The notes beneath the pieces are model-generated. The model was not told the DNA's origin, ran no database searches, and saw only the letters and a program-made list of their open reading frames with translations. Position numbers and translations under genes: made by a program. This document shows, piece after piece, positions 2,545 through 29,212 of a stretch of 38,376 nt of DNA. Each line of letters starts with the position of its first letter. Within the stretch, counting starts at the first letter, position 1. This DNA comes from Thermoplasmatota archaeon (GTDB lineage Archaea; Thermoplasmatota; Penumbrarchaeia; Penumbrarchaeales; Penumbrarchaeaceae): positions 1-38,376 of the forward strand of contig CBDDUX010000054.1 of NCBI GenBank assembly GCA_965234725.1, read 5' to 3'.

Positions 2545-2879
2545 TTTTACAGATCATCCCATTCTCTCAGAGGTAGATTGTTGATATTCAAATACTTCAT
2601 GATTTCAATATTGTGAATAAAAAAAATCCGACAACTTCCTAAATCCCCCAAAAGAGGCATACATTTATGAATTTTTTATTAGTATCCTCAAGGGTTTTCC
2701 AGCGATTACTAGGGTCGTTTCCGACTTGCGCACGTTTTTCGCAAAAAAAATCATCTCATTGACTTGATATTCGTTCAAGAACGTGACGGTTCAGTGAGAA
2801 GGATTCCTTTACTGGATCCCATTTTCTTCCATTCAAGATAAGATAAGTTCAGTATCTCATTTCGAAGGGTCCTGGATCT

Positions 2880-6425: not shown

Positions 6426-6459
6426 GATATCACCAGGAACGATAATTAACGAAAGTAGT

Positions 6460-6520
6460 GTGACGTATAAAAAGCATTTTGGAGAGACACCGAAAGCTCC
6501 GAAGGCCTTTTTACAAACAA
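6460..6520. promoter_or_regulatory. Divergent promoter region with TATA-like boxes
   Basis: The minus strand reads TTTTTATA about 40 nt upstream of the 6425 start. The plus strand has TTTTTACAAA about 25 nt upstream of ATG 6541, which lacks an RBS and may be leaderless. Confidence 0.4.
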
Positions 6521-6540
6521 TGTGTTCCTGATACGTTCAC

Positions 6541-7410: not shown

Positions 7411-7416
7411 CCAATA

Positions 7417-11046: not shown

Positions 11047-11066
11047 GTAATATAATCATATTCGGT

Positions 11067-14000
11067 TCATGAATATTTTTCATCAGGTCCTATCTCCAAC
11101 TTAACCTCTTCAGCGGACCTCCTCTCTCTTCTGAGAAGGAGCAGGATGCCTCCGATTGTCAGGACCGTTGTCACTACTATCAATAAAATGAACCAGATCA
11201 TATCGTTATTTTTCTCATTACCGACAGGATCCGATCCATCAGGAGGTCCTGTCTGCTCTTCATTCTCCATCCCAACCAGTATATCGACATATGTGCTGAC
11301 GTTGTGTCCTGGAGTACCATCGTCTGCGAACAACGTGATCCTGTGATATCCATTTCTCAGTTTGATATCTGCCCTCGCCTTATTGGAAATCAACCCCGAG
11401 AGGTTTGAATACCATGTAAGGTGAATATCAGAGAACTCCCCCAATCCGTCATCAGTTGTCCCTGTCGCATCCAATCGGATCATATCGGGGGCATAGTGGA
11501 AGGATCCGTTGGCGGGTCTTGCAATTACTGGAACAGGAGGGTAGTTCACCGGTCTTTCCTCCACTTTGATCGATACGGTGCTGGATATCCCCTCTATGCC
11601 AACCCGATCCCGACACCTTGCCTGAAGTTCGATCTCGGAGGGATATACGGAGAGAACATACGAACCAAGAACTTCTCCATTTTCATCCACGGCAATAATA
11701 GAAACCCAGTCCTCCCAATCATCTTCAACCTCCCTCCACCTGATCTCTATCGTTTCTGGATCAACCCCGGATCCTCCGATGTCATGCGCTCTCACGCTGA
11801 CGTTGAGTTCCCCTTCAAGCAACTTATCTCCATCCAAGGGTCCCATGATCTTTATCGCGGGAGGTTCCATGTCGAAACCTATTGGGATCATTTCTGATTC
11901 ACCTGTGTTCAGGTTCAGGTCCGAGGCCCTGAACTGGATGAAACCTTTCCATCCGTTCGTACCGGTGATCTGAACGGAAAGATCTGCTGAAAGGTTCCCC
12001 TGTTCGGCCATCACTTTGATCCCTTTTCTGGTCCAGTCATCGGAAGGTTGTTCGTCTTCCTCCCATTTCCTGTATTGAATGCTTTTCAGATCAAGACTTA
12101 TCGGGTCTATTCCGGTGTCGACGGGATCGGAAACAGATGCGTTGATCACGATCTCTTCCTTACCATACCACCGGGGAGTATCCAAATGGAATTCCGGGGG
12201 TGTTCTGTCTATGTTCTGTTGATACCCCCAAGTTTCCGATACCCTGCCTGTCCAGTCCACTGCCTCAAGGGAGGTCCTTATCTCCGAATCTTCAATATCA
12301 GCATATGAGAATGATGATGCCGGATGGTAAACCCCTTCGGATCCGAGGAATCCGTATCTACCGAACGGGTCCTCCATTTTGATGGAGATCCTGGAATCGT
12401 CACCTCCGTATCTGTAATATATCTCGATGGGAACGAATTCGAATGCTTCAACCTCGTAACCGCCGAATATGGGTTTGGTGGTAAGATCGGTCCAGTTCAG
12501 GACCCTTTCCCCGCCCAGTAATACCTTGATCTCTCCTTTCCCCTCAAATACCAATCTTATGTTACCTGTTCTCTCCTGCATCAGCCATCCGTGCCACCTG
12601 ACGGAATAATCTCCGGGAGGGATCTCGCGGGGATTCGGACCCCATATTGCCCAGTCAAGATTGAATTTTTCTTCGATATGGGTGCATCTCTCCTCCATGA
12701 ATCTCCGATCCGTGAAACAGGTCGCCAAGAGTCCTCCCTCCTCCATCACGGGACCGTTGTGATAACTTTCACAATCCAGCTGATAGTACTTCACACCCGA
12801 TTCATCATTATCACCAATCTTTCCGAGTTGATATTCCCAATCCATTGTCAGGTTGAATGATTTCCCATAACCATCATCCATTACCAGGTTGTATGTGATC
12901 ATCTCCGGTTTCATGGGAGCTTCCCGATCCATGGGAATCCTGACATCCATTTCCATTCCGAGATCCGGAGGTTTGCTTCCGGGTAAAAGGTGATCCGGAA
13001 GGGCCAGGGATATCGAGAGTTTCTCTTCATCAATGTCCCTTGCAGTTGTTTCGACTATGGACGTTTCTCCGTTCAAGAACGAGTCCCTTACCTTTTCATC
13101 ATCTTCGAGCAGGATACTTACTGACCCGGGATGGGGAGTCCTGTTCGGGAATCCCTGGAAGATCACCTCCAATCCTGAAACTGCAACCTCCGATCCGGGA
13201 AGTGCGGTACCTCCAGTTTCCTCCAACGGGATCCCATCACCTGTCACAATCGGGGTTCCTATCAACTTCAGGTCCTTTCTGAAATCGATCCTATCCTTCA
13301 GGATCGAATATATTTCATCACCCAAGTCATCGATCAGGGTGACCTTCACATCCGTTTCTCCGTTGAAAGGGATGGACCAGTTGAAGTAGAGGTCCAGTTC
13401 ACAATAACCAATTCCACTTCCATTGTGGTGGAAACCGGAAGATAGTATCTGCACATCCCTCATGTCTCCAAAAAAATGTGCTTTGATATTTTGTCCAATC
13501 AAAAATTTCATTGTCTGTGAATCCTGAACGAATTCCATCTCCACCCAGGTAATATTATTTTTCTTATTGGTATCCAGGAATGATATGTTCCAGTTCGAAT
13601 TTCCAGACCTGCAGAAAATCCTGTTATTCTCCACTGCAGGTCCCATCACCTTCAGGTCCTTGAACCTGTAACCCGATCCGTAAATGATGAAGATCTCACC
13701 ACATCTTGGTCTTGAATTATTGACACCGTCTGCATATGGAGCGGAAATGATCAAATCCTTGAATCCATCAAGATCCAGGTCAACCATTTCCACTATCCAT
13801 CCGAAAGAGTCACCCTCATCGTTTGCCACGATGGTCAATTTATCCGAGGGATGGTCGAGAATGATATGGCCCTTCCCGGCTGAAAGCAGGGTTGAAATGT
13901 CGAAAAGATCCATCCAGCCGCTATTCAACCATGTTCTGTCGTCGACCCCTGTCTGAGTTCCCGCGTAATTGATCACTATCAGTTCTTTTACACCGTCCCC

Positions 14001-14804
14001 CTCGAGGTCTGAAACGATGAAATCCTTCCCGATCTTGTCACCGACATAATTCTTATGATCTTCTCCCTTGATCTTGTTTCCTTCCAGAACGTAATCGCTT
14101 ACCATATCTATCGTGGTTTGTAGGGGAAAACTCCGATTGTCCTTACCCATGATGATGTGGATCTCGCCGCAATTTGGTCTCAGATTATCCAAACCGTCCG
14201 CCTCGGATGCTCCCACAAGAATGTCATGCTTCCCGTCCCCATCCAGATCGTTCACAATGAGATGATGACAGAGCCTGTCCTTGGAATCGGTTTCGCCAAT
14301 ATTGCAGATCCTGCCCCCTGAATCGGAATCGAATATGATCTGCAGCATATTTCCCATGGCTTGGACCGTATCGTTGTAACCATTGCCATCTATATCGATT
14401 CCCGTGGATCGAGTTGGGAGATCGACGGGTTTGCTACCTTGAAAACGGTTTTTCTTCTCAAGATCGATCAGCGCCGGAAATCTTTCCCCGTTTCCCTCGA
14501 TGGTGTAGGATCTGTATCCTTCCGGGTCCTCTGCAGGGATCTCAATATTGTATCCTTTTTCGGTTTTTAAATTGGTGAATCGGAGACCGATCTGTGCGCC
14601 GTTGGGTTCTATCAAAGGTCCAATTATCCTTGTTCCGGCAATTTCTTCAATACTGACAGAACCCGAAAGTGATGTTTCCTCACCTTTTGCATTAATTGAG
14701 GATGTGTTGATATCAAACGGAATGGAAACTATCTGGAAACCCATTATAACCATCAATACAACTGTCAAGAAAGATGTGCCTCCCTTCCCAATGGCACTCC
14801 GCAA
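11067..14804 (-). CDS. Surface protein with FG-GAP (integrin-alpha-like) repeats, a PA14 domain, Ig/PKD-like domains and a C-terminal TM
   Basis: TTG start preceded by GGGTGA. FG-GAP units DLDGDGKHDILVGA and FGWIVEMVDLDLDGFKDLIISAPYAD...GEIFIIYG. PA14-like GLLAT..F...YSVRWHGWL...LLGGERVLNW. TM followed by RRERR. Confidence 0.85.
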   Translation of the reverse strand: MRSAIGKGGTSFLTVVLMVIMGFQIVSIPFDINTSSINAKGEETSLSGSVSIEEIAGTRIIGPLIEPNGAQIGLRFTNLKTEKGYNIEIPAEDPEGYRSYTIEGNGERFPALIDLEKKNRFQGSKPVDLPTRSTGIDIDGNGYNDTVQAMGNMLQIIFDSDSGGRICNIGETDSKDRLCHHLIVNDLDGDGKHDILVGASEADGLDNLRPNCGEIHIIMGKDNRSFPLQTTIDMVSDYVLEGNKIKGEDHKNYVGDKIGKDFIVSDLEGDGVKELIVINYAGTQTGVDDRTWLNSGWMDLFDISTLLSAGKGHIILDHPSDKLTIVANDEGDSFGWIVEMVDLDLDGFKDLIISAPYADGVNNSRPRCGEIFIIYGSGYRFKDLKVMGPAVENNRIFCRSGNSNWNISFLDTNKKNNITWVEMEFVQDSQTMKFLIGQNIKAHFFGDMRDVQILSSGFHHNGSGIGYCELDLYFNWSIPFNGETDVKVTLIDDLGDEIYSILKDRIDFRKDLKLIGTPIVTGDGIPLEETGGTALPGSEVAVSGLEVIFQGFPNRTPHPGSVSILLEDDEKVRDSFLNGETSIVETTARDIDEEKLSISLALPDHLLPGSKPPDLGMEMDVRIPMDREAPMKPEMITYNLVMDDGYGKSFNLTMDWEYQLGKIGDNDESGVKYYQLDCESYHNGPVMEEGGLLATCFTDRRFMEERCTHIEEKFNLDWAIWGPNPREIPPGDYSVRWHGWLMQERTGNIRLVFEGKGEIKVLLGGERVLNWTDLTTKPIFGGYEVEAFEFVPIEIYYRYGGDDSRISIKMEDPFGRYGFLGSEGVYHPASSFSYADIEDSEIRTSLEAVDWTGRVSETWGYQQNIDRTPPEFHLDTPRWYGKEEIVINASVSDPVDTGIDPISLDLKSIQYRKWEEDEQPSDDWTRKGIKVMAEQGNLSADLSVQITGTNGWKGFIQFRASDLNLNTGESEMIPIGFDMEPPAIKIMGPLDGDKLLEGELNVSVRAHDIGGSGVDPETIEIRWREVEDDWEDWVSIIAVDENGEVLGSYVLSVYPSEIELQARCRDRVGIEGISSTVSIKVEERPVNYPPVPVIARPANGSFHYAPDMIRLDATGTTDDGLGEFSDIHLTWYSNLSGLISNKARADIKLRNGYHRITLFADDGTPGHNVSTYVDILVGMENEEQTGPPDGSDPVGNEKNNDMIWFILLIVVTTVLTIGGILLLLRRERRSAEEVKLEIGPDEKYS

Positions 14805-15223: not shown

Positions 15224-15363
15224 ATTTACGTCAATAAGTAAAAAAATGGAAAAATGAAAGTCATTTTGAAACATTAATTTTATTAACCTAATGAGGTTAA
15301 AGGAAAATGCGTCTTATCTAAAAAGTGAAGTCGCCCTCAAACCCCCTCCGGAGGATCTTCCCA

Positions 15364-18300
15364 ATGAGTCCTGACAGAGTAAACACCATACTGAGTATCA
15401 ATAGAGATGTAATTTTATACAGTTCACCGGCACAAAAGGATGTCAAATCCGTATTGGAGGCATCAGAAAAAGGTGCCTTAGGTGTCCTGGACATGGAATA
15501 CCTCGATGCTGCCTTCATTACCGAAGCGGTCACAACACTCAATGGTTCATCACTTCCATTCGGTGTCAGGATAGATCCCATGAGCGACAAGCTCATGACA
15601 CTCATGGCAGGAGATGTCCCCAAGGACATGAGGCTCCTGATCTCTATCTCCAAGGAGGGCCTCCCGGCAATGGTCAGGTCCGGTATTTACGATACCGCCC
15701 ATGAGATGAACATCAAGGTCTTCCAGGAGGTTTGTGCCAAGGAAGAGGCTGAGGATTCTGTTGAAGGTGGCTGTGACGGTCTTATCATCAGACCATACGA
15801 AGGTGGAGGAAGGGTATCCTCCTCGAACCTCGTTGATCTATTGAAGGAGATCCGTACCGTCTCCAAGAACGTTCCAGTCCTGGTCCGGGGAGGTTTCAGT
15901 TCAGATTCTATCGATAAGCTTGATGTTGAAGGCTATGTAGTCGACCAGGAACTACTCGGACCACGATCCCTTCCCGAACCAGTAAGGAATAGGATCTCCC
16001 AAAACAAGAATGTCTCCATTATCACGTTGATGAAGGACATTGGCAGGACAATGCGCTTCATTGCAGGGTCAGATGAGAAGAAGAAATTGGAGGCTCTCGA
16101 GAAGGATATGATGTCCGACGGTGCCTCACCCAAGGAGTTGTACAAGGCATTGAAGAAGGAGACCACCGAACTCCTTGAAGAGACCATGAATGGAAACGCT
16201 CTTCTTTATCCGGCAGGAGAATATGCACTTAGCGGACCTTCCATGGATCTTGATTCCATATTCGGTGGGCCAGGAACAATACACGCACACATCACCTCAG
16301 CAGAGGCCACTGTGGATGGAAAGCCTGTTCCAGCTGAATATCATGATAAATCCATTGCGATCGTCGGTATGGGCACTGTATTTCCCAAAGGCATAGGGTT
16401 GAATACATTCTGGAAGGCGGTCTTGGATGGTGTGGATGCTTGTATGGAGATACCTCCCGACAGGTGGGATTGGAGGCTTCATTACGATCCTGACCCGTCG
16501 GTTCCCAACAAGACCTATTCTAAAATAGGGGCATTCATCACGGATTTCGAGTTCAACTCATTCGATTTCAAGATCCCCCCCAAGGTTGCGGAACTCATCG
16601 ATCGTTACCAGAGGTACGGTCTGGTCGCAACAAAGGAAGCATTGAACGATTCCAAGCTAATGGAAACAAAAGGCCTGGATACTAACAGGGTTGGCGTGAT
16701 CGTTGCCAATTCAGCCGGGGGAGAGAACAGGGACTGGGTGGCTACCAGGATAAACTTCGAGGAGGTCCATGGATGGATGCAGGAGACCGATATCTGGAAG
16801 GACCTCCCCGAGGATGCCAGGAAGAAGCTCTACGAACAGACCAGAAAGAAGGTTGATGACAATACGATAGAGATCACAGAGGACACCATGCCGGGTTCCC
16901 TCCCTAACATCGCTTCCGGAAGACTGGCAAATATATTCAATTTCAGAGGGCCGAATATGATCACCGACGCCGCATGTGGATCGGCCCTTGCCGCAATGTT
17001 CGTTGCGAGGAATTCTCTCCTTCTGAAGCAAATTGATGCGGCTGTCTCCGGTGGGTTAGAGTCCTTGATGGCATCCCATGGGTTCGTTGAGTTCTGCAAG
17101 ATAGGTGCACTGACCCCCGACGGGTCCAGACCATTCTCCGATGGAGCAAACGGTTTCCTTATGGGAGAAGGAGCCGGTATAGTCATCCTGAAAAGATTGG
17201 ATGATGCGGTGGAGGCCGGAGACAAGATCTATGCTGTTATCAGAGGTATTGGCGGATCATCCGATGGTAAAGGAAAGGGAATAACAGCTCCCAATCCAGA
17301 GGGTCAGAGGTTGGCTGTTGTGAGGGCCATGGAGGATGCCGGAATAGACCGCAGCACCATATCCTTCATCGAGGCACATGGTACATCGACCGCTGTTGGT
17401 GACGTTGCTGAGGTCAATTCTCTGAAAACCGTCTTTGGAGGACTTCCCAGGAACTCAATTGGCCTCACCTCGGTTAAGTCCCAGATCGGTCACCTCAAAT
17501 CCGCTGCCGGAGTGGCCGGTGTTGTCAAAGCTGCAATGGCTGTTCATGAAAAGGTCCTTCCTCCCCAGATCAATTTTGACAAACCCAACCATTACATCAA
17601 TTGGGAGGAGACACCGTTCTATGTCATAACCGAGTCGAAAGATTGGGAGAGGATCTCTCCGGATATTCCCAGGAGATGTTCCGTTTCAGCTTTCGGGTTC
17701 GGTGGGACCAATTTCAATGTGGTTCTGGAGGAGTTCGACAGGGAAATCTATGATTCCTGGAAGAAGGCAAAGGAAGATACTGGAAAACCCTCGATCCCCC
17801 TTCCCGAACCAGAGGTAAAGACAGCAACGGTATCCATTGAAGCCGAGATCTCAGTTGACATGGATAAGGTAAGGGCGTACCTTGAAACGGAAGGCCACAA
17901 GGAAGGAGAAGCATTCCTTTTCTCATCGGATAATCCACTGGACCTCCTCAAACAGGCATCTGTATCCGTCGCAAAAGCTCGAGGTATCGTGGAAAAAGGA
18001 GGAAGGTTCAGGGATGCTTTCGAGATGCCCTCATATGATGGAAGGTACCGGCTGGGGATCATGGCAAAGGACCCTGACCATTACGAGAAACAGGTAGAGA
18101 CATTAAAGAAAGTGGGAATGAACGAGAAAGCCCTCATGGCCCTTGCCAACAAAGGTATATTCGTCGGGGATAAAGAGAGAATAGACCATGGTAAGGTCTG
18201 TTTCATGTTCCCAGGGCAGGGATCGCAGTACATCAACATGTTTCGGGACCTGGCGGAAAAATACAAGCCGGTCATGGAAGCGTTCAATGATGCTGACAGG

Positions 18301-21300
18301 GTCATGTCAGATCTGATAGAGAAACCTCTTTCTTCATATGTGTTCCAGGACCTGAAAAGGGGTGATGAAGGGTTCGACGAGGCGGCCGATACCCTTCGGA
18401 GGACCGAGTTCAACCAGCCATCCATGCTGACCGTGGATACAGCCATGTACAAGATGCTTTTGAGGCTGGGTGTCGAACCCGATCTGGTCATGGGTCATTC
18501 TTTGGGTGAGTACGGGGCCCTTATCGCATCGGGGATCATGAGCTTCGATGACGCGCTCAGAGCTGTTTCCGCAAGGGGAAAGGAGATGCGGGACCTCAAA
18601 GTGGATGATGTGGGAAAGATGGCCTCCGTGATGGCCGGACTGAAGGAGGTCGAAGAGGTCCTGAAGGATATCGAAGGTTATGTCATCCCTGCTAACAAGA
18701 ACTGCCACATCCAGACCGTTATTGCCGGGAACACGGAACCAATGGAGGAAGCTGTTAGGAAGTTCAAGGAAAAAGGGATCGAAACCGTTTTCATCCCTGT
18801 ATCCCACGCTTTCCACAGCGAGGTTGTAGCCCCCGCAAAAGTCCCATTGAGGAACTACCTATCGAAACTGGATATAAGACCTCCGAGGATTCCCATACTC
18901 TCCAATGTTACAGCCGATCTCTATCCCATGGAAGGAACTCCCGAGGAGCTCAAGGAACAGGTCCTCGACCTTCTGAAGGAACAGGTTGCACATTCCGTTG
19001 AGTGGATGGGAGAGATCGACAGGGCTTACAAGGAGGGTTGCAGGACATTCATCGAGGTCGGACCTAAAAGGGCCTTGACCTCCTTTGCATACAATCTGAT
19101 GGAAGATGATGTGAAGAAGGGACGGGTCTTCCCGATCACATCCAATCATCCCAAGAAAGGGGGGATACAGACCTTCAACGAGCTGGTTGCTTCACTGTGG
19201 TCGCTGGGATTCGATCTGAAGGTCCCTGACCTCAAGGATCAAAGCTACTACAACAAGGAGTTCATTGAGGCTTTCGAACCATTCACCACGAAGATGAAGG
19301 TCCCGGAAAAGAGGGTGTTCGAGGTTCCGATTGCCCAGGAGAAAACCAACCCGATATCATTCGAGACCTTCAGATCAGAGAATTCCGATCTCGTAGATGA
19401 GCTCCTTAAGAAGGTGTACGAGAGGATCCCCTCCAGTTCTTCCTCCAGCGAGTCATCCAGAATGGATGTCGATCTCACTGGTATCGGATCGACGGTCCCT
19501 TCAAGAAAAGGAGTCAAAGTTGTGATCTCCGGGGCTGCAATGGGCCTTCCAGGAACATTCAAAGGGGTCTTCGATCCCAACAACCTTGGTTATCTTGTGG
19601 AGGGAAGGAACCTCATCGGCAACATGGATGAAAGATACCTGGAAAGATTCATTGACAAGCATATAGTAAGACTTGACAAGAAACCGGACGGAAGCGCAGA
19701 AATGGTGACATTGAACCATCCATCCATGGTGGTGAAGCTCTCCGGAAAGCTGGGTTCCTTCGATCTTGTGGAGGAATTCGGTGTCCCGAAAGCATTGAAC
19801 GATGTTTTGGATATCACAACAAGGCTTGCTTTTGCCTCAGGTCTGCTGGCACTGAAGGATGCAGGTATTCCACTTGTGAAACGTTATGCACAGACCTCAA
19901 CAGGTTCCTTCCTCCCCGAGGAATGGGAGCTGCCGCTGGAGATGCAGGAGGATACCGGAATACTATTCGCCTCCGCATTTCCTGGAACGAACAATCTGAT
20001 AGACGAGTTGACATCCTACTTCGAAGCGAAGATGTCCAGATCGAGCAATGAGGAAAAGGCAAGGTTATACGAACAGCTCAGAGCAAAGGTGAAGGGCACA
20101 GATGCGGAAAAGGAGCTAGACGCCTGGTACAGTTCATCCCTAGAGGAACCTGAATCGAAGTACGATTTCCCCAGGCTCTTCATGTTCAAGGTCCTGGCCA
20201 TGGCCCATTCTCAGTTCGCTCAATATATCAAGGCCAAGGGACCCAATACCCAGGTGAACTCTGCCTGTGCTTCATCGACTCTTGCAATATCCATCGCTCA
20301 GGACTGGATACAGATGGGGCGCTGCAAGAGGGTCATAGTCCTTGGAGCAGATGACCCAGCCTCCGATACCATGATCGAATGGTTCGGTTCTTCCCTTCTT
20401 GCCATGGGAGCGCTCACACCGGAACGGGATGTGACCCAGGCAGCCCTTCCTTTCGACAGAAGGAGGAAGGGAATGATAATCGGCTCAGGAGCCGCTGCTC
20501 TTATCGTGGAAGCTGAGGAGGAACCGGGAAGAAGGGGAATGAATCCAATAGTAGAGATCCTTGGATCTCATATAGCAAATTCAGCTTTCCACGGATCCAG
20601 GCTTGACATCGCCCATATCGCCCGGTCCATGGACCATTTCATAACAGGTATGGAAAAGGAATGGTCAATGGACAGGAACGTGATGGCACCTGATCTGATA
20701 TTCATGTCCCATGAGACCTATACACCCGCAAGGGGCGGGTCCTCTGCAGCCGAAGTGGAATCACTGAGGAGGACCTTCGGAGAGAGATACAGGGACATCC
20801 TGATAATGAACACCAAAGGTTACACAGGTCATGCTTTCGGAGCATGCATCGAGGACCCGGTCTTGGTGAAATGTCTGGAAGAGGGCGTCTCCATTCCTCT
20901 TTCCAACCTCACTCCTGATCAGATCGATCCTCAGTTCGAAGGTCTCCAGCTTTCAAGCGGAGGTCATCACAACAGGCACTATGGACTGAGGATCGCCGCC
21001 GGGTTCGGTTCACAGCTGGCATTCCTTTTGATTAGAAAACCTGATACCAGTGGAAGGTTCAAAGATGATCAGAAGTATAAGTCCTGGCTCAACTCGGTGG
21101 CCACAACACAACCTGTGGAACTGGAGGTGTATCTGAACAATCTCAGGTTGAAGGACAGTGGAAGGGATAACCTCATCCCGCATATGGCCGTCAAAAGAGG
21201 ATCATCCGTCATTGGTTACAAAAAGGACACCATGGAGGATGTGGACCAGGAACGGTTCGATCATTACAAGGAAGGGGTCCTTGAAATATTCTCGAAGAAG

Positions 21301-24300
21301 ACGGATATTCCCATCGAGATGATCGATATAGATTCCGACCTTGAGAACGATCTGGGTATCGATACCGTCAAACAGGTGGAGCTCTTCGGAACTGCCAGGA
21401 TCGCTTTCGAACTACCCAAGGATGAAGGTGTGAATCTCAGGGATTATCCAACTCTCCGTCATGTCATTCTGTATATTATGTCAAAGAAAGAGGCAACCAA
21501 CGGCTGGAAGAAAGAGGACAAATCAGAAAATGAAGAAGTCGAAAAGGAAACCTCTGTAGAGGAACCTTTGAAGGCGGTCGAATCAGCAGGTACTAACTGG
21601 GATTCGATCAAGGATAGGGTGGTTGTCCTTGTCTCACAGAAGACTGGGTACCCTATTGATATGCTGGACATAGACCTTGACCTGGAAGCGGACCTTGGGA
21701 TCGACACCGTGAAACAGGTAGAACTTTTCGGAATGGCCAGGGGCGAGTTCGATCTTCCCAGGGATGATACCATCAATCTCTCCGAGTTCAATACACTCAG
21801 AAAGATAGTGGATTACGTAGTGGGCCAATCCTCCAAGGAAGTAGAGGGGGCGATCCCAAAGATCGAGGAAGTTGAACCGGTGAAGGAAGAAGAGCCGGTG
21901 GAAGAAGAGACTCAACCAGAACCTAAGATACCGGCTACCGGTGATGGCTGGGATTCCATGAAGGACCGTGTTATCGAAATCGTGGCGGAGAAGACCGGTT
22001 ACCCTACAGATATGCTTGAGCTGGATCTCGATCTGGAAGCGGACCTGGGAATAGACACCGTGAAACAGGTGGAACTTTTCGGAATGGCCAGGAGCGAGTT
22101 CGATCTTCCCAGGGACGATACCATCAATCTTTCAGAGTTCAATACACTCAGAAAGATAGTGGATTACGTTGTAGGCCAGTCCTCTAAAGGAGTAGTGGAA
22201 AAGGTTCCAGAGATCGAGGAAGTTGAACCGGTGAAAGAAGAAAAGCCGGTGGAAGAAGTGCCTGAAGAAGAACAGGAGGCTGGATCACCAGCAACCGGTG
22301 ATGGCTGGGATTCCATGAAGGACCGTGTCATTGCCATCGTGGCGGAGAAGACCGGTTACCCTACAGATATGCTTGAGCTGGATCTCGATCTGGAAGCGGA
22401 CCTGGGAATAGACACCGTGAAACAGGTGGAACTTTTCGGTATGGCCAGGAGCGAGTTCGATCTTCCCAGGGATGATACCATCAATCTTTCAGAGTTCAAC
22501 ACTCTCAGAAAGATCGTGGATTATGTTGTAGGCCAGGCTTCCAAGAAGGTGGTGGAAGAGGTTCCAAAGATAGAGGAAGTTGAACCGGTGAAAGAAGAAA
22601 AGCCGGTGGAAGAAGAGATTCAACCAGCATCCGAACCTGAACAAGAGGCAAAATCACCAGCATCCGGTAGCAACTGGGATTCGGTCAAGGACCGTGTTAT
22701 CGAAATCGTGGCGGAGAAGACCGGTTATCCAGTCGATATGCTTGAACTCGACCTTGACCTGGAAGCGGATCTGGGGATCGACACCGTGAAACAGGTAGAG
22801 CTATTCGGGATGGCAAGGGGAGAGTTCGACCTTCCAAGAGACGATTCCATCAACCTATCCGAGTTCAACACTCTCAGGAAGATAGTGGATTATGTTCAGG
22901 GAATGGTAGTTTCCAAGAAGGAATCTATCTCATTAAAAGAAGAACCTGTAGAGGAAAATGAGGTTCCGGAGGTTGATGAAGACTACCATTGGGAGAACGT
23001 CAAGGAGAAGGTCGTGACCATTGTTGCTGAAAAGACCGGATATCCCGCTGACATGCTGGAACTCGACCTTGACCTTGAGGCGGACCTTGGAATAGACACT
23101 GTGAAGCAGGTTGAACTTTTCTCCATGGCAAGAAGTGAGTTCGATATTCCCAGGGACGATTCCATAATTCTATCGGAATTTCCCACGTTGAGGCATATCA
23201 TAGATTTCGTTTCAAAGAAGACCCTTGAGGGTAAAGGATCCGAAGTGGCAGACAATAAAGAAGAGGTTCCCGCTCAGGAAAAGGCCCTTTCGATCGAGGA
23301 ACTGAAATGTAGGATCAACAGATGGGTCCTTCAGGCCGATGAGAGAGAACCTCTCTCCGGTTCCAAAGGAAAACCCCTTGAGGGAAAGACATTACTCGTC
23401 TTCGGAGGCCTGAAAGAAGAAATCGGTATCCTGGAGGAGGTCCTGGGCTGTAAAGCGGAACCGATGGACCCCAATGAAGCATCAGAGATGGAGCTGGACC
23501 TGTCCGGATATGATGGTATCTTGAACCTCTATTCCTTCAGATTGTCCAGGGGACCATATCCGGCAGAATGGGAGAAGGAGAACCATCTGGCTATCAAGGT
23601 CCTTTTCAGAATCGTCAAGTCAATGGACAAGGTTTTCAAGAAGGGAGGTTTCCTTCTTTCCATAACAAGGATGGGAGGAAGGTTCGGACTTGGAAGGGAT
23701 ATAAATCCGATAAACGGTGCCATCTCAGGATTCACCAAAGCCGTTCACAGGGAATACAAGGATACAAGAGCAATGGTTCTGGACATTCCCGATGAGTTCG
23801 ATCTCAACCAGGCTGTGAGCAGACTTGGAGATGAGCTATCTGCCGATCATGGACTTCCGGAGGTTGGGTGGGACGGATCGATGGGTTACAGACCGGTTCT
23901 GAGGATAGTGGAACCAGGCGAACCTTCATTTCTGGAGATCAAGGATGGAATGAACATCCTGATCACCGGAGGAGGCTCCGGGATCACAGCCGAGATAGCA
24001 AGGGGACTCTCGAATGTGGCTTCCCTGAAGCTTCATCTTACCGGACGGACAAAGGTCCTTGAGGATGTTGAAAAGTTCGCATCGATGGATGAGAATGGTC
24101 TGGAAGCCGAGAAGGAGGCGATCAAGGAGAAGCTTAAGGCCTCCGGAGAGAAGGTGACTCCCGTGAAGATCGACCGGGAGTTCTCAATAATTACGAAATC
24201 CATATCCATACAACGGTTGTTGAAAGATATTGAAACCAACGGTTCTGAAGGTACCTATCATTCTATCGATGTGACAGATGTTGAGGGAATGAAAGAACTG

Positions 24301-26547
24301 GCTGTAACTTTCGGGCCATTCGATATGGTGGTCCATGCTGCTGGTATAGAACAATCCAAACTGATCGCGAACAAGACAGAGGAGGATTTTGCAAGGGTCT
24401 TCGATACAAAAGTCAAAGGGGCTCTTTCACTCCTTGAGGCGACTCGGGAACATCCTTTGAAGTTGTTCCTCTCGTTCTCTTCGGTTGCAGGCAGGTTCGG
24501 TAACGCGGGACAGGTGGATTATGCCGCTGCCAATGACCTTCTTTCCAAACTTCCGGGAGCGGTCAGGTCCCTCCATCCCAATTGTGTTGTCAAATCGGTC
24601 GGATGGTCGGCATGGTCCGATGTGGGGATGGCCAGTAAAGGATCTATCAAGACGATCCTGGAAATAGGCGGGATCACTTTCATCCCTGTCGATCAGGGTG
24701 TCAGATTTGCAATTGATGAACTTGGATCAGGTAAGGAGAGGGAAGTCCTCTATTCTGGATCGATGGGACCACTGGACCGTGAGTGTTCCATGAGATGGGA
24801 GGAAGGCATCAATGTACCATCTGATGAATATATCTCAGAACTGGAAAAGGAGATACCTCTCAAGCAGATGGAAGAAGTTATCGAGGAAGAAGAAGTCACC
24901 GAAGTGGAGGAAGAGAGCCAAATAGAGTTACCTTCCAACACTCCGATGGATCCAATATCTCCTCTTGTGGACAGGATAGTCGAGAAGGATGATACCTCGA
25001 TCGTTGCGATCAAGGTTCTTGATATCAACAGGGAGAGGTTCCTTCCGGACCACTCTGTGATGGGTACACCTGTCCTTCCAGGTGTGATGGGATTGGAGGT
25101 ATTTGCCGAGGTAGCAAAATTGCTCAGACCCGATCTGGATGTCATAGGTCTTTCTGAGGTCCAATTCAAGAAGCCGGTCAATGTCAAGGACACACTGGAG
25201 ATCAAGATCTCAGGGAAGATAGAGGACGATGATGAGCTTGAAAAGACAGTCAACATCAGACTGACCTCAACGGATCCCAAGAAGAAGAAAGAGATCGTCC
25301 ATTTTATCGGTAATGTCATCTTGGGGAATTCCGAGGATGTTTGCAGGATCCAGGACGGCCACCCTTTGAGACCGGACTCCGTCAAAGCCCAGGTCCTTAG
25401 AGATGAGATCTATCAGCATCTTTTCCATGGACAGCTGTTCCAGGTGACCGCGGGCATGTCCGTATTGACATCCGAGGAGCTGCTTGGAACCTTCAGGATA
25501 CCAGAGGGTCCACAGTTCGAACCGAAAACTGGCTGGACGGATGGAGACCTGCAAACACCAGCCCTCCATACTGAATTGGGATTTCAAGTGGCAGGTGCAT
25601 ATGTTCTCGACCGCTTCGATATGATGGCGCTTCCGGTAAAAGTCGGAAGGATCTCCTATTCCTCCAGGATACGGACGGATGAGAAGGCCTTCGCATGGGT
25701 CCGTTTCAAGGGTCAGGAGGAGAACGAGTTCTCTTTCGATGTGGACATCATAGACCCCAGCGGAAACGTGAGGTTCTCCTATCAGGATTATAGATTGAAG
25801 GGTCTGATGGCCAGCAAGGTTGACCTCCAGGGGGACCACTCCATACCGTTCGAAGAGGTCCCTTCCCCCATCAAGGGGATCAAGGTGTTCAGGCTGGATG
25901 TTGATGCCTTCACAACGGAACTTGATGTGGTCAAGGACCATTTCTCCGAGGATGAATGGGCCTCCCTTGTCAATGAAAAGATGAGTGACAAGAGAAAGAG
26001 GGAGCATGTGCTTGGGAGGGTGATATCCAAGCTTGCGGTTTCCTGGTACGTGAACATCAGCGAGGCCAGACCGGTATCTCTCACCAATATCAGCATCCAG
26101 ACAGAAGATGGTGGAAGACCGTTCGCGATCCTCGATGGGAAGAGGATCGAGATATCGATATCACATTCCCACAGATGGGCCATTTGTTCGGTTGGCGACA
26201 AACAGCATGGATGCGACATCGAACTGGCAGAGTCAAGGGACAGGGCCTTCTCGGATGAGGCTTTCGATCAAGGAGAGGTTCAACTGATGAAGAGGATCCA
26301 GGAAGAAATGGATATAGGCGAGCCACTTGCCCAGACCTTGCTGTTCTCATCAAAGGAGGCCTATTTGAAGATGATAGGTACAGGGTTGAGGACGGACCTG
26401 AAAAAGGTCGCTTGCACTGATGTTTTAATACTTCCGGCAAGGACCGGACTTGCTTTCGAAGTCCTTGTCGGACATGATGATAAGATATCAAAGGTCGAGG
26501 CCAGTGTCGCATCAGCATATGTATTGACGATCTGTTCAAAATCATAA
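15364..26547 (+). CDS. Single-chain iterative type I fatty acid/polyketide synthase: ER-like(FabK/NMO)-KS-AT-KS-ACPx6-KR-DH-PPTase
   Basis: The ORF is open from GTG 15325; ATG 15364 is preferred because GGAGG lies at 15350-15354 (3727 aa). KS1: DAACGS (Cys 16975), HGTST (17377), GHLKSAAG (17491). AT: FPGQGSQ, GHSLG (Ser 18499), HAFH (18805). KS2: NSACASS (Cys 20266), HETYT (20710), TGHAFGA (20830). Six ACPs with LGIDTVKQVELF. KR: TGGGSGI and GQVDYAAAN (Tyr 24520). DH: HSVMGTPVLP (His 25051). PPTase: SISHS, GCDIE, FSSKEAYLK. Confidence 0.95.
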   Translation: MSPDRVNTILSINRDVILYSSPAQKDVKSVLEASEKGALGVLDMEYLDAAFITEAVTTLNGSSLPFGVRIDPMSDKLMTLMAGDVPKDMRLLISISKEGLPAMVRSGIYDTAHEMNIKVFQEVCAKEEAEDSVEGGCDGLIIRPYEGGGRVSSSNLVDLLKEIRTVSKNVPVLVRGGFSSDSIDKLDVEGYVVDQELLGPRSLPEPVRNRISQNKNVSIITLMKDIGRTMRFIAGSDEKKKLEALEKDMMSDGASPKELYKALKKETTELLEETMNGNALLYPAGEYALSGPSMDLDSIFGGPGTIHAHITSAEATVDGKPVPAEYHDKSIAIVGMGTVFPKGIGLNTFWKAVLDGVDACMEIPPDRWDWRLHYDPDPSVPNKTYSKIGAFITDFEFNSFDFKIPPKVAELIDRYQRYGLVATKEALNDSKLMETKGLDTNRVGVIVANSAGGENRDWVATRINFEEVHGWMQETDIWKDLPEDARKKLYEQTRKKVDDNTIEITEDTMPGSLPNIASGRLANIFNFRGPNMITDAACGSALAAMFVARNSLLLKQIDAAVSGGLESLMASHGFVEFCKIGALTPDGSRPFSDGANGFLMGEGAGIVILKRLDDAVEAGDKIYAVIRGIGGSSDGKGKGITAPNPEGQRLAVVRAMEDAGIDRSTISFIEAHGTSTAVGDVAEVNSLKTVFGGLPRNSIGLTSVKSQIGHLKSAAGVAGVVKAAMAVHEKVLPPQINFDKPNHYINWEETPFYVITESKDWERISPDIPRRCSVSAFGFGGTNFNVVLEEFDREIYDSWKKAKEDTGKPSIPLPEPEVKTATVSIEAEISVDMDKVRAYLETEGHKEGEAFLFSSDNPLDLLKQASVSVAKARGIVEKGGRFRDAFEMPSYDGRYRLGIMAKDPDHYEKQVETLKKVGMNEKALMALANKGIFVGDKERIDHGKVCFMFPGQGSQYINMFRDLAEKYKPVMEAFNDADRVMSDLIEKPLSSYVFQDLKRGDEGFDEAADTLRRTEFNQPSMLTVDTAMYKMLLRLGVEPDLVMGHSLGEYGALIASGIMSFDDALRAVSARGKEMRDLKVDDVGKMASVMAGLKEVEEVLKDIEGYVIPANKNCHIQTVIAGNTEPMEEAVRKFKEKGIETVFIPVSHAFHSEVVAPAKVPLRNYLSKLDIRPPRIPILSNVTADLYPMEGTPEELKEQVLDLLKEQVAHSVEWMGEIDRAYKEGCRTFIEVGPKRALTSFAYNLMEDDVKKGRVFPITSNHPKKGGIQTFNELVASLWSLGFDLKVPDLKDQSYYNKEFIEAFEPFTTKMKVPEKRVFEVPIAQEKTNPISFETFRSENSDLVDELLKKVYERIPSSSSSSESSRMDVDLTGIGSTVPSRKGVKVVISGAAMGLPGTFKGVFDPNNLGYLVEGRNLIGNMDERYLERFIDKHIVRLDKKPDGSAEMVTLNHPSMVVKLSGKLGSFDLVEEFGVPKALNDVLDITTRLAFASGLLALKDAGIPLVKRYAQTSTGSFLPEEWELPLEMQEDTGILFASAFPGTNNLIDELTSYFEAKMSRSSNEEKARLYEQLRAKVKGTDAEKELDAWYSSSLEEPESKYDFPRLFMFKVLAMAHSQFAQYIKAKGPNTQVNSACASSTLAISIAQDWIQMGRCKRVIVLGADDPASDTMIEWFGSSLLAMGALTPERDVTQAALPFDRRRKGMIIGSGAAALIVEAEEEPGRRGMNPIVEILGSHIANSAFHGSRLDIAHIARSMDHFITGMEKEWSMDRNVMAPDLIFMSHETYTPARGGSSAAEVESLRRTFGERYRDILIMNTKGYTGHAFGACIEDPVLVKCLEEGVSIPLSNLTPDQIDPQFEGLQLSSGGHHNRHYGLRIAAGFGSQLAFLLIRKPDTSGRFKDDQKYKSWLNSVATTQPVELEVYLNNLRLKDSGRDNLIPHMAVKRGSSVIGYKKDTMEDVDQERFDHYKEGVLEIFSKKTDIPIEMIDIDSDLENDLGIDTVKQVELFGTARIAFELPKDEGVNLRDYPTLRHVILYIMSKKEATNGWKKEDKSENEEVEKETSVEEPLKAVESAGTNWDSIKDRVVVLVSQKTGYPIDMLDIDLDLEADLGIDTVKQVELFGMARGEFDLPRDDTINLSEFNTLRKIVDYVVGQSSKEVEGAIPKIEEVEPVKEEEPVEEETQPEPKIPATGDGWDSMKDRVIEIVAEKTGYPTDMLELDLDLEADLGIDTVKQVELFGMARSEFDLPRDDTINLSEFNTLRKIVDYVVGQSSKGVVEKVPEIEEVEPVKEEKPVEEVPEEEQEAGSPATGDGWDSMKDRVIAIVAEKTGYPTDMLELDLDLEADLGIDTVKQVELFGMARSEFDLPRDDTINLSEFNTLRKIVDYVVGQASKKVVEEVPKIEEVEPVKEEKPVEEEIQPASEPEQEAKSPASGSNWDSVKDRVIEIVAEKTGYPVDMLELDLDLEADLGIDTVKQVELFGMARGEFDLPRDDSINLSEFNTLRKIVDYVQGMVVSKKESISLKEEPVEENEVPEVDEDYHWENVKEKVVTIVAEKTGYPADMLELDLDLEADLGIDTVKQVELFSMARSEFDIPRDDSIILSEFPTLRHIIDFVSKKTLEGKGSEVADNKEEVPAQEKALSIEELKCRINRWVLQADEREPLSGSKGKPLEGKTLLVFGGLKEEIGILEEVLGCKAEPMDPNEASEMELDLSGYDGILNLYSFRLSRGPYPAEWEKENHLAIKVLFRIVKSMDKVFKKGGFLLSITRMGGRFGLGRDINPINGAISGFTKAVHREYKDTRAMVLDIPDEFDLNQAVSRLGDELSADHGLPEVGWDGSMGYRPVLRIVEPGEPSFLEIKDGMNILITGGGSGITAEIARGLSNVASLKLHLTGRTKVLEDVEKFASMDENGLEAEKEAIKEKLKASGEKVTPVKIDREFSIITKSISIQRLLKDIETNGSEGTYHSIDVTDVEGMKELAVTFGPFDMVVHAAGIEQSKLIANKTEEDFARVFDTKVKGALSLLEATREHPLKLFLSFSSVAGRFGNAGQVDYAAANDLLSKLPGAVRSLHPNCVVKSVGWSAWSDVGMASKGSIKTILEIGGITFIPVDQGVRFAIDELGSGKEREVLYSGSMGPLDRECSMRWEEGINVPSDEYISELEKEIPLKQMEEVIEEEEVTEVEEESQIELPSNTPMDPISPLVDRIVEKDDTSIVAIKVLDINRERFLPDHSVMGTPVLPGVMGLEVFAEVAKLLRPDLDVIGLSEVQFKKPVNVKDTLEIKISGKIEDDDELEKTVNIRLTSTDPKKKKEIVHFIGNVILGNSEDVCRIQDGHPLRPDSVKAQVLRDEIYQHLFHGQLFQVTAGMSVLTSEELLGTFRIPEGPQFEPKTGWTDGDLQTPALHTELGFQVAGAYVLDRFDMMALPVKVGRISYSSRIRTDEKAFAWVRFKGQEENEFSFDVDIIDPSGNVRFSYQDYRLKGLMASKVDLQGDHSIPFEEVPSPIKGIKVFRLDVDAFTTELDVVKDHFSEDEWASLVNEKMSDKRKREHVLGRVISKLAVSWYVNISEARPVSLTNISIQTEDGGRPFAILDGKRIEISISHSHRWAICSVGDKQHGCDIELAESRDRAFSDEAFDQGEVQLMKRIQEEMDIGEPLAQTLLFSSKEAYLKMIGTGLRTDLKKVACTDVLILPARTGLAFEVLVGHDDKISKVEASVASAYVLTICSKS
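21265..23215 (+). repeat. Tandem array of six ACP-coding repeats with Glu/Pro/Val/Lys-rich linkers
   Basis: The conserved Thr codons are at 21364, 21706, 22057, 22414, 22783 and 23098 (spacing 315-369 nt). Copies 3 and 4 are nearly identical at DNA level. Confidence 0.95.
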
Positions 26548-26585: not shown

Positions 26586-28541
26586 ATGGTGAAGAAGAGC
26601 AATATACTTGGAGGGGCAGGCGAGACAGTTCTGCTCACTGGGAACGAAGCGGTAGCCAGGGGCTGTTTAGAGGCAGGACTTGCAGTCGGTACCGCCTATC
26701 CGGGAACACCCGCGTCGACCATTATGGAGAAACTTGGTGAGGTAGCCCCCGAACTGGGTTTCTGGGCCGAATTCTCGGTGAACGAGGCCGTTGCCTTTGA
26801 GGTGGCGGCAGGATCGGCCCTTGCCGGTGTGAGATCGTTGATGTCTACAAAAATGCTTGGGGTCAATCTGATCGCCGATGCCCTCACCGTGATATCTGTC
26901 ACCGGTGTAAGGGGTGGATTGGTGATCATAACAGCTGACGATCCTCAACAGTTCTCCTCTCAGAATGCGGAAGATACCAGATTCTTCGCAATGCTGGCCA
27001 AGGTCCCTGTCCTTGAACCCGCAGACGGACAGGAAGCCAAGGACATGGTGAAGTATGCCTTCGAACTGTCCGAACAGCTTGAGCTTCCGGTGTTTTTAAG
27101 GATCACTCCAAGGATATGCCATTCTTCCTTCGATGTGGAGCTGGCTGAGATCAGGAAACCGAAATTGGACGGAAAGTTCGTGAGGGATCCCAAGAGATTC
27201 GTCATGATATCCACTTACTCCAGGCCCAGACAGTCTATCCTCAATGAGAAGATGGATAAGGCCAAGGAGATCTTCAACGATAATGAATGGAACTATGAGG
27301 TGGATTTCCAGAACGGTAAACAGGTGAAGAAGGGTGAGGCCTTCAACACATTCGGTATAATTGCATCAGGTCTTACCTATCACTACATCGAGGAGGTCCT
27401 GGAGGTAACAAAGGTAAATGCCAGGGTCTTGAAGCTTGCGACAACATATCCCTTACCAGAGGATCTCATAGCAAACTTCATCTCCAGATTGGACCAGGTC
27501 CTGATCGTCGAGGAGAACGAGGGTGTTACAGAGATGCTTACAAGGGCCCTCGCCCAGAAAAGAAGGATAGATGTTAGGATCATGGGCAAGGACGATGGTC
27601 TGATCCCATTGGCAGGCGAACTGAATCCGGATATCGTGGGAGGGGCATTCCAGAAGATATTCGGAGTCAAGTTCACCGAAGAGCTTACGGAACCTTATCT
27701 CGAGGCAGAGGAGATGGTATCCAAGAGGGTTCCCGCACTATGCGCTGGTTGTCCCCACAGGGCTTCATTCTTTGCAATAAAGGAGGCTTTGAGGAGGAAG
27801 GGAAAGGGGGGTGCGATAATGGGGGACAGAGGATGTTACAATCAGGGAGCATATGAACCCCTTGAAGGTATGGATACCTGCATATGCATGGGGGCCTCCA
27901 TTGCAATGGCCTCCGGACTGGCCCACTCCGGTACGAACGAACCCGCTGTTTCCGTTATCGGCGACGGCACATTCTATCATGCCGGAATACCATCCCTCCT
28001 CAATGCGGTCCACAACCGGGCCAATATTGTCTCTTTGATCTTCGACAACTCCATAACCGCAATGACCGGACATCAGCTGAATCCCGGTTCAGGTGTCAAC
28101 CTGATGGGTCAGCATACAGGTTTTGCAAATCTGAAGAAGATCGTTGAAGCCTGTGGTGTCGAGAACGTCCGTGTCATCAATGCATTCGATACGGAGAAGC
28201 TTGTCAATGCCGTTATGGAAGAGATAGATAACGATGGTCCTTCTGTCATCATCTCCAGGTCACCCTGTGCCTTGGTCGTGGAGAGGAACATCAGGAAGCG
28301 AAAGATGAAGTTTCCCAGAGCAGTGGTGGATATCGACAAGTGTGTGGGATGCAAGGTCTGCATGAAGAAGATAGGATGCCCTGCATTTGGATGGAGTGAT
28401 GATCCCAAACAGCATCTGGAGATCCTTCCTCACTGCAACGGATGCGGATTATGTGTTGAAATGTGCCCGTTCGGTGCGATCTCGGTCCCAGACAAACCAA
28501 AGGGAACACTTGGTATCACCGTCAGGGAGGGGAAGAAATGA
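26586..28541 (+). CDS. iorA: Indolepyruvate:ferredoxin oxidoreductase alpha subunit
   Basis: LLTGNEAVARG, AYPGTPAS, SVNEAVAFEVAAG, DDPQQFSSQNAEDTR, LCAGCPHR, the TPP-binding motif GDGTFYHAG...DNSITAMTGHQ, and a C-terminal 2x[4Fe-4S] (CVGCKVC...GCP; CNGCGLCVEMCP). Confidence 0.95.
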   Translation: MVKKSNILGGAGETVLLTGNEAVARGCLEAGLAVGTAYPGTPASTIMEKLGEVAPELGFWAEFSVNEAVAFEVAAGSALAGVRSLMSTKMLGVNLIADALTVISVTGVRGGLVIITADDPQQFSSQNAEDTRFFAMLAKVPVLEPADGQEAKDMVKYAFELSEQLELPVFLRITPRICHSSFDVELAEIRKPKLDGKFVRDPKRFVMISTYSRPRQSILNEKMDKAKEIFNDNEWNYEVDFQNGKQVKKGEAFNTFGIIASGLTYHYIEEVLEVTKVNARVLKLATTYPLPEDLIANFISRLDQVLIVEENEGVTEMLTRALAQKRRIDVRIMGKDDGLIPLAGELNPDIVGGAFQKIFGVKFTEELTEPYLEAEEMVSKRVPALCAGCPHRASFFAIKEALRRKGKGGAIMGDRGCYNQGAYEPLEGMDTCICMGASIAMASGLAHSGTNEPAVSVIGDGTFYHAGIPSLLNAVHNRANIVSLIFDNSITAMTGHQLNPGSGVNLMGQHTGFANLKKIVEACGVENVRVINAFDTEKLVNAVMEEIDNDGPSVIISRSPCALVVERNIRKRKMKFPRAVVDIDKCVGCKVCMKKIGCPAFGWSDDPKQHLEILPHCNGCGLCVEMCPFGAISVPDKPKGTLGITVREGKK

Positions 28542-29161
28542 ACGTGATCCTTTGCGGGGTAGGTGGAAATGGTGTGGTCTTGACCACTCGGATCATTGCT
28601 GAAGCAGCCCTGAGGGAAAGAACCAAGGTAAGGGTGGGAGAGGTCCACGGTCTTGCAATGAGAGGTGGAACTGTTGTTTCACATCTGAGACTTGGTTCCG
28701 ATGCAAAGGGCGTACTGGTTCCCCAGAGGAAAGCGGATATCCTCCTTGCCTTCGAACCACTTGAAGCATTGAGACAGATGAAGTTCCTCAAGAGGGGGGC
28801 GAAGGTCATCCTTAACAATGAGCCTTATGTCGGTGTCGATGCCCATCTGGGTCTTTCAAGATATCCTGAGGTTTGCGATATCCTGGAAAAGATCCAGGCC
28901 TCCCAGGATCTCGTTGATGTACCTGCCACAAAGCTGGCGATCGAAGCGGGTGGAGCAGTAATGACAAATGTTGTGATGCTCGGAACGCTTTCAGCTTCCA
29001 AGGAGCTTCCCATAGGCCGTGATTCGCTTATAGAGGCGATCAAGTCAAGAGTACCTCCGATGATGGTCGATGCCAATATCAAGGCCTTCGAGCTCGGTGA
29101 GAAGGCTTTCAAGGAATGGGAAGCCAACAGGGTCTGCGAGATCAAGGACCCCACCCAATAG
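28538..29161 (+). CDS. iorB: Indolepyruvate:ferredoxin oxidoreductase beta subunit
   Basis: The ATG overlaps the iorA stop (ATGA) with GGGAGG upstream, so the track start at 28463 is too long. Motifs NVILCGVGGNG, GEVHGLAMRGGTVVSHLRLG, AFEPLEALR, NVVMLG, NIKAFELG. Confidence 0.93.
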   Translation: MNVILCGVGGNGVVLTTRIIAEAALRERTKVRVGEVHGLAMRGGTVVSHLRLGSDAKGVLVPQRKADILLAFEPLEALRQMKFLKRGAKVILNNEPYVGVDAHLGLSRYPEVCDILEKIQASQDLVDVPATKLAIEAGGAVMTNVVMLGTLSASKELPIGRDSLIEAIKSRVPPMMVDANIKAFELGEKAFKEWEANRVCEIKDPTQ

Positions 29162-29212
29162 ACCAATCTATTTTAGTATGCCCAACCACCTCCATGTCCT
29201 GGGTGAAGGGAC

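Follow-up and report, generated by a model that had tools for sequence, protein, structure and literature searches.

Threonine at the cofactor site of the tandem acyl carrier domains in a PfaA-like synthase of a Thermoplasmatota archaeon

The textbook rule is that carrier proteins receive their cofactor on a serine that never varies, and motif definitions, annotation rules and the engineering of phosphopantetheinyl transferases (PPTases) rest on this residue. In the 38,376-nucleotide stretch of DNA analysed here (contig CBDDUX010000054.1 of the Thermoplasmatota assembly GCA_965234725.1; the whole stretch is referred to as the window), a single gene encodes an all-in-one PfaA-like synthase whose six tandem acyl carrier protein (ACP) domains have threonine at the position of this serine. 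The question raised by the locus is whether these domains are working carriers and, if they are, which group the threonine bears and which enzyme attaches it. We propose that the threonine hydroxyl is the phosphopantetheine acceptor and that it would be primed by the Sfp-type PPTase fused to the same protein, a reading to which we assign a probability of roughly 0.7.

Threonine at the cofactor site of the six carrier domains

The translation of the open reading frame (ORF) at 15325-26547 contains six tandem ACP repeats, with DLGIDTVKQVELF in every one of them. A preliminary description of the window reported threonine in all six domains, encoded five times by ACC and once by ACT; the codon positions (Table 1) were confirmed by script, base for base. 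With the PF00550 (PP-binding) model, the six domains score 23.2-36.8 bits (cut-off, 20.8) and the whole protein 122.8 bits. Copy 1 shares 50-54% protein identity with the others and copy 6 shares 70-78%; copies 3 and 4 are 99% identical to each other, and TRF detected a 357-bp tandem array of 3.5 copies at 21638-22896. Elsewhere in the synthase ORF, ACC and ACA encode invariant threonines, e.g., in the HGTST motif of the ketosynthase (KS), and we therefore conclude that there is no recoding at the carrier site.

Based on a HMMER alignment of one copy, the threonine aligns with the D-S cofactor serine of solved ACPs (PigH, E. coli ACP and others). The AlphaFold2 model of ACP2, obtained with 73 natural sequences, has a mean pLDDT of 87.7, and its helix II starts at residue 37, which is the threonine. 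Comparison of this model with the PDB gave 57 matches at E <= 0.001, the best of which were all ACPs, with TM scores of 0.74-0.84 and rmsd values of 1.3-1.8 A. As modelled, the domain has the canonical ACP fold. The threonine occupies the cofactor-serine site: where ACPs have a conserved D-S serine at the start of helix II, threonine was found in 6/6 domains.

Threonine and serine among the relatives

A homologue search with the ACP region scored 7999 proteins, 7418 of which reached E <= 1e-5, and the window's protein (P0001) together with the best 120 of these 7418 relatives formed a census set of 121 proteins. Using a hidden Markov model (HMM) built from the domains themselves, we counted 676 ACP domains in this set (4 to 9 per protein), 534 with threonine, 142 with serine and none with any other residue at the site. 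A census by regular expression gave 533 threonines and 141 serines and divided the proteins into 94 all-threonine, 21 all-serine and 6 mixed ones. A looser expression also returned the letters F, E, H, M, N, V, I and Y, which were rejected as chance matches outside the ACP array and were absent from the HMM census.

The 21 all-serine proteins are the classical PfaA of gamma-proteobacteria (source names Psychromonas, Colwellia, Vibrio, Moritella and Shewanella) with the sequence GIDSIKRVEI, which confirms the carrier motif GIDSIKRVE that the preliminary description had attributed to PfaA. The threonine-type (T-type) domains have fixed neighbours, i.e., T-V-K-Q, F at +7 and R at +11, where PfaA has S-I-K-R, and their D-L-G-x-D-T recognition motif is invariant. 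Among 513 distinct 88-residue segments of T-type domains, no alternative conserved Ser or Cys was found, since all other columns hold at most 20% Ser and at most 2% Cys; the alignment therefore offers no alternative attachment residue.

The T-type class is built as KS-AT-KS2-ACPn-KR-DH, where AT, KR and DH stand for acyltransferase, ketoreductase and dehydratase and KS2 is a second ketosynthase. KS2 separates AT from the ACPs in 93 of the 94 all-threonine proteins (the exception is a 2205-residue fragment) and in 6/6 mixed proteins, and it is present in 0/21 all-serine ones. A tree of the first ketosynthase (KS1) could be built for 103 of the 121 proteins, leaving out 18 that covered less than 85% of KS1 or had their KS1 match beyond residue 1200. 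In this tree, the all-serine proteins form one clade (SH-aLRT 100, branch 1.07) separate from all T-type proteins, including P0001.

Beyond the census set, a degenerate DNA pattern for D-L-G-x-D-T-V-K-Q matched at least 120 stretches in species-representative genomes. The matches listed include the bacterial phyla Elusimicrobia, Acidobacteriota, Chloroflexota, Actinomycetota, Myxococcota and Desulfobacterota, as well as Heimdallarchaeota; the Actinomycetota among them include isolates labelled Amycolatopsis sp. and Mycolicibacterium xanthum. By record title, Desulfoluna butyratoxydans also encodes a T-type synthase. The preliminary description mentioned similar GxDTVKQ motifs in uncharacterised bacterial synthases, and the protein and genome motif searches agree that G[IV]DTVKQ occurs in such synthases, on a very large scale. 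All four threonine codons are used at the carrier site of the relatives (ACC 200, ACG 160, ACT 35 and ACA 21). Because the search pattern itself required ACN in loci L009-L128, the unbiased codon set consists of the 30 archaeal loci not selected for threonine, in which 111 sites have threonine and 6 have serine. The T-type family is large, and threonine or serine alone occurs at the site.

Two of these loci deserve separate description. In the cultured actinomycete Amycolatopsis sp. (L070:2-7998, + strand), four T-type ACPs lie 84-86 residues apart and are followed by KR-DH, and a biotin carboxylase/BCCP gene is located directly downstream of the synthase. In the relative at L129:9983-21211 (protein 90% and nucleotide sequence 86% identical), four ORFs of 1067, 1371, 733 and 579 amino acids take the place of a single synthase frame, a split that could reflect frameshifts or assembly errors.

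In the window's phylum, Thermoplasmatota, which the source names of the closest homologues also give, 126 of 401 sampled genomes and 63 of 262 high-quality ones have tandem T-type ACPs; in the window's own family, the count is 22 of 23. In the KS1 tree, 13 rows make up the archaeal clade (SH-aLRT 100), in which STTT... and TTTT... forms interleave; P0001 itself (TTTTTT) is sister to P0002 (STTTTT). Within this clade, serine is confined to ACP1, and the starred branches force at least four Ser/Thr changes among close relatives. A homologue from the Asgard archaeon Candidatus Heimdallarchaeum aukensis (L022:3-7538, + strand), with the order KS-AT-KS2-ACPx3-KR-DH-PPTase, has S, T and S in its three ACPs. 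Given the switching within the archaeal clade and this S-T-S arrangement, serine and threonine look exchangeable, at the level of sequence, where the PPTase is the same.

The presumed priming enzyme and the rival explanations

Pfam models identified two ketosynthases, an acyltransferase, the PP-binding repeats, KR, a polyketide synthase (PKS)-type DH and a C-terminal ACPS-family domain in the 3740-residue ORF, and the NCBIfam PfaA model TIGR02813 matched the protein with 1210.5 bits (curated cut-off, 1010.1). The catalytic motifs of KS1, AT, KS2, KR, DH and PPTase are invariant in 12/12 aligned archaeal homologues, which bears out the earlier impression that the KS, AT, KR, DH and PPTase motifs are intact.

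Sfp-type PPTases are characterised by a Mg-binding G-x-D-x-E motif and a K-E general-base motif. The last 240 residues of the synthase match PF01648 with 43.3 bits (cut-off, 25), and G3629, D3631, E3633, F3674, S3675, K3677, E3678 and K3682 of this domain are invariant in 12/12 sequences. Its first half aligns with AcpS chains and its residues 107-217 with Sfp, and the match to 4PPT_N is weak (E 0.37). The PPTase is linked to the synthase, being either fused to it or encoded adjacent to it. G037, a complete genome of the phylum (2.06 Mb), is an example: its 2941-residue synthase is followed 7 bp downstream by a separate gene for a 253-residue PPTase. Five near-complete genomes of the phylum, in 1-10 contigs each, have no PF00550 matches over the cut-off other than 3-4 synthase domains; 16/16 carrier domains read GIDTVKQAEIM, and each genome has exactly one PF01648 match, which adjoins the synthase. 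With one PPTase and only threonine carriers over the cut-off, these five genomes are therefore closed systems.

We also modelled the complex of the PPTase with coenzyme A (CoA), Mg and ACP2, which scored 0.90 against 0.10 for the best of three controls; the docking mark is reached by 58 of 80 solved complexes and by 2 of 110 mismatched pairs. At least 96% of contacts are common to the runs, the partner pLDDT is at least 90, and the modelled interface places ACP residues 2127-2129 (D-T-V) against Glu3633 and Glu3678 of the PPTase. Because like complexes have been solved, this result shows likeness of docking, not reactivity.

In the mechanism that we propose, six working acyl carrier domains would carry the 4'-phosphopantetheine arm on the threonine hydroxyl instead of on serine. 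The Sfp-type PPTase at the C-terminus of the same protein would transfer the arm from CoA by ordinary PPTase chemistry, in which Mg binds the pyrophosphate and a Glu acts as the general base. In their holo form, the domains would then serve KS1, AT, KS2, KR, DH and, probably, the enoyl-reductase-like domain at the N-terminus. The whole would be an iterative, self-contained fatty-acyl or polyketide synthase of the 'Type R' secondary-lipid kind, which is compared below. A possible reason for the preference for threonine is that a phosphodiester on this residue might better resist beta-elimination or phosphodiesterases.

Several observations weigh against this mechanism. According to the available text of PMC3340395, E. 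coli ACP S36T was not modifiable and did not complement an acpP deletion; threonine is therefore not trivially accepted, and at least AcpS-type priming rejects it. Our literature search found no experiment showing phosphopantetheine on threonine in any protein. The genome of the window (3.54 Mb, 114 contigs, 97.65% complete) encodes a 99-residue stand-alone serine carrier (contig 3, L160:2184-2483, + strand; TIGR00517 27.4 bits, PF00550 20.4 bits vs a cut-off of 20.8) and a 125-residue AcpS-type PPTase (contig 26, L007:1489-1866, + strand), so that the earlier statement that no Ser-type ACP is seen stands for the window and fails for the genome. Two sub-threshold PF00550 matches (17.4 and 15.5 bits) are also present in the five near-complete genomes. 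In bacterial T-type loci covering the region, a PPTase is fused or lies at most 2.5 kb downstream in 22 of 66, a lower bound because the PPTase HMM was built from archaeal sequences; an intervening carboxylase gene, as in Amycolatopsis, would likewise escape the 2.5-kb limit. The docking pass may reflect memory of the solved Sfp-PCP (peptidyl carrier protein) and AcpS-ACP complexes, and the T-domains of mixed proteins could do something different from their S-domains.

The S36T result and the two additional genes are also what would be expected if the threonine domains were structural or scaffolding pseudo-carriers that are never primed, the synthase using another carrier, e.g., the stand-alone serine protein, or CoA-bound intermediates; the idea that archaeal fatty-acid synthesis is ACP-independent is in line with this explanation. 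We regard it as unlikely. The serine carrier sits in a very AT-rich, glycan-type cluster with UDP-glucose-dehydrogenase-like, NAD-synthase-like and glycosyltransferase-like ORFs, and the AcpS-type gene lies between glycosyltransferase-like ORFs; judging from this gene context, the two may form a separate pair for glycan decoration. The preliminary description looked to a serine ACP elsewhere in the genome that serves the synthase as counter-evidence; the stand-alone carrier exists, and nothing links it to the synthase. Moreover, the five near-complete genomes keep one PPTase beside the synthase and no other carrier over the cut-off, the D-L-G-x-D-T motif and the restriction of the site to S or T are preserved, and the tandem copies are maintained at 3-9.

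A threonine that bears some other group, either a different CoA- or nucleotide-derived arm or a direct O-acyl tether, would suit a distinct subfamily with its own fixed neighbours and its own architecture. This explanation appears still less probable than that of unprimed domains, given that the PPTase linked to the synthase is of the ordinary Sfp type and has its catalytic motifs intact, that one and the same PPTase is found with Ser-type as well as Thr-type domains, and that KS, AT, KR and DH are of standard thioester-handling kinds. The chance that the threonine is an artefact, i.e., an error of sequencing or assembly, a mutation that arose recently in a decaying gene or an ACN codon read in a non-standard way, is negligible: it is present in 6/6 copies, including the divergent ones; relatives across phyla have it, with all four codons; the ORF is intact at 3740 residues with invariant catalytic residues; and ACC and ACA are read as threonine in the rest of the frame. 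The preliminary description had judged an error or a single recent mutation unlikely on the six copies, to which the 90%-identical relative and the whole family, all with threonine, can now be added.

Priming of the threonine by the linked PPTase remains the reading that we prefer, and, on odds a little better than even, it would extend to a very large PfaA-like ('Type R'-like) clade in both domains of life. This clade would use an O-(4'-phosphopantetheinyl)-threonine anchor and Sfp-type PPTases that accept threonine as well as serine, and in many Thermoplasmatota it would be the only carrier system. If so, PPTase chemistry would extend to a secondary alcohol, and annotation rules that require serine would be expected to mark no cofactor site here. 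G-[IV]-D-T-V-K-Q would then be a sequence marker for a huge class of synthases, and the carrier and PPTase would possibly provide an orthogonal pair for engineering. These archaea would possess an acyl-chain synthase that is self-contained and depends on ACPs. Complete iterative synthases that bring their own PPTase are common in one archaeal phylum, and this is relevant to the question of whether archaea produce fatty-acyl chains and by what route.

Layout, surroundings and known systems

The positions of the domains are collected in Table 1.

Table 1. Synthase gene, its domains and three genes elsewhere in the same genome. Positions refer to the window except in the last row.
Feature	Position	Strand	Details
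All-in-one PfaA-like synthase, 3740 aa	15325..26547	+	NMO (nitronate monooxygenase)-like N-terminus, KS1, AT, KS2, six ACPs, KR, DH, PPTase
N-terminal domain, aa 1-335	15325..16329	+	Weak likeness to PF03060 nitronate monooxygenase/PfaD-type enoyl reductase, E 0.019, below cut-off
KS1, aa 340-810	16342..17754	+	Cys551, His685, His723
Acyltransferase, aa 950-1300	18172..19224	+	GHSLGE and HAFH motifs
KS2, aa 1395-1905	19507..21039	+	'CLF' (chain-length factor) position of Type R; Cys1648, His1796, His1836 kept
ACP1	21274..21468	+	Thr2014, ACC at 21364-21366
ACP2	21613..21819	+	Thr2128, ACC at 21706-21708
ACP3	21964..22170	+	Thr2245, ACC at 22057-22059
ACP4	22321..22527	+	Thr2364, ACC at 22414-22416
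ACP5	22690..22896	+	Thr2487, ACC at 22783-22785
ACP6	23005..23211	+	Thr2592, ACT at 23098-23100
Ketoreductase region, aa 2650-3150	23272..24774	+	Pfam KR at aa 2878-3098
PKS-type dehydratase, aa 3200-3490	24922..25794	+	His3243
Fused Sfp-type phosphopantetheinyl transferase, aa 3500-3740	25822..26544	+	Asp3631, Glu3633, Glu3678, Lys3682; presumed primer of the Thr-type ACPs
Two PlsC-type acyltransferase genes and one GGGP-synthase-family gene	G000:C62:14378-14746, C35:26848-27234, C18:18456-19136	-	

The Cys-His-His set of KS2 is invariant in 12/12 sequences, and because this full set is retained, KS2 may itself catalyse condensation instead of acting as a classical chain-length factor. The NMO-like N-terminal domain is present in 14 of 100 T-type or mixed proteins (8/94 all-threonine and 6/6 mixed) and in 0/21 all-serine ones; the relatives P0004 and P0121 have a precomputed PF03060 match. 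This domain of about 335 residues may be an enoyl reductase fused ahead of KS1. A sigma-70 promoter scan upstream of the gene gave 3 sites against a shuffle mean of 2.9, with a model that is inapplicable to archaea.

Starting 39 bp past the synthase, genes similar to the alpha and beta subunits of indolepyruvate:ferredoxin oxidoreductase (IorAB) and a nucleoside/AMP phosphorylase-like gene occupy 26586-30724. We rejected these genes as partners of the synthase because the 86%-identical locus L129 lacks the segment 26540-30856 at this place, a difference that corresponds to a 4.3-kb insertion or deletion. The segment 7402-11082, with an ORF for a 1209-residue surface protein, is likewise missing there. 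The flanks (877-14804 and 34951-38367) contain very large ORFs with PKD, Big, FG-GAP, transglutaminase-core and NosD/right-handed beta-helix signals, which presumably encode surface proteins. Elsewhere in the genome, two PlsC-type acyltransferase matches (92.9 and 80.4 bits) were found, a family present in 0/4 archaeal control genomes; these enzymes could use acyl chains from the synthase. A PcrB/GGGP-synthase-family gene is present as well, as it is in the archaeal control genomes.

Among known priming systems, the window's PPTase domain weakly matches the Sfp chains 1qr0 and 4mrt (the latter from the solved Sfp-carrier complex) with E about 0.006, and it differs from Sfp-type PPTases in its fusion to its own synthase and in its presumed threonine acceptor. 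The window's ACPs share their fold with the ACP of the E. coli ACP/AcpS system, and in both the acceptor is located at the start of helix II. In E. coli ACP, however, the change from Ser to Thr abolishes modification and function, whereas in the window's ACPs threonine is the conserved natural state.

PfaA is the A subunit of polyunsaturated fatty acid synthases in marine gamma-proteobacteria and works with PfaB, PfaC, PfaD and a separate PfaE. Like the window's protein, it has tandem ACPs between KS-AT and KR-DH, and the E-A-D-L-G-I-D-x frame is common to both; unlike it, PfaA has Ser in GIDSIKRVEI and lacks KS2 (21/21 all-serine proteins), whereas the window's protein has Thr and KS2. No PfaB-, PfaC- or PfaD-type partner genes were found among the ORFs of the window, and a PF00109 search of the genome returned only the two KS domains of the synthase and three ORFs of 409-425 residues.

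The enediyne polyketide synthases (PKSE, e.g., CalE8 and SgcE) are iterative synthases with a C-terminal PPTase domain and a single Ser-type ACP between AT and KR, and they have no KS2. Their C-terminal order, ACP-KR-DH-PPTase, is that of the window's protein and provides a precedent for self-priming in cis; the window's protein differs from them in having six ACPs and a second KS before them. The PKSE model was not among the 25 best of 109 NCBIfam matches to the protein.

As described by Shulse and Allen (2011, PMC3098273, available text), Type R secondary lipid synthases have one pfaA homologue with the order KS-MAT-CLF-ACP(3-6)-KR and a PPTase gene directly downstream; their hosts are Acidobacteria, Elusimicrobia and Chloroflexi, their product is given as unknown, and in Koribacter an acyl-CoA carboxylase gene follows the synthase. 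The words 'serine' and 'threonine' and any mention of archaea each have 0 occurrences in the text of PMC3098273 that is available, and we found no description of Thr-type carrier domains in the open-access literature (subscription journals and supplementary files lay outside the search). The window's protein matches Type R in the order KS1-AT-KS2-ACPx6-KR with the PPTase fused; the three phyla named for Type R are among the holders of the threonine motif, and the carboxylase gene after the Koribacter synthase recurs in the Amycolatopsis locus. From this architecture and these taxa, we infer that the T-type synthases are Type R, to which the archaeal form adds the NMO-like domain at the N-terminus, a recognisable DH and a fused PPTase.

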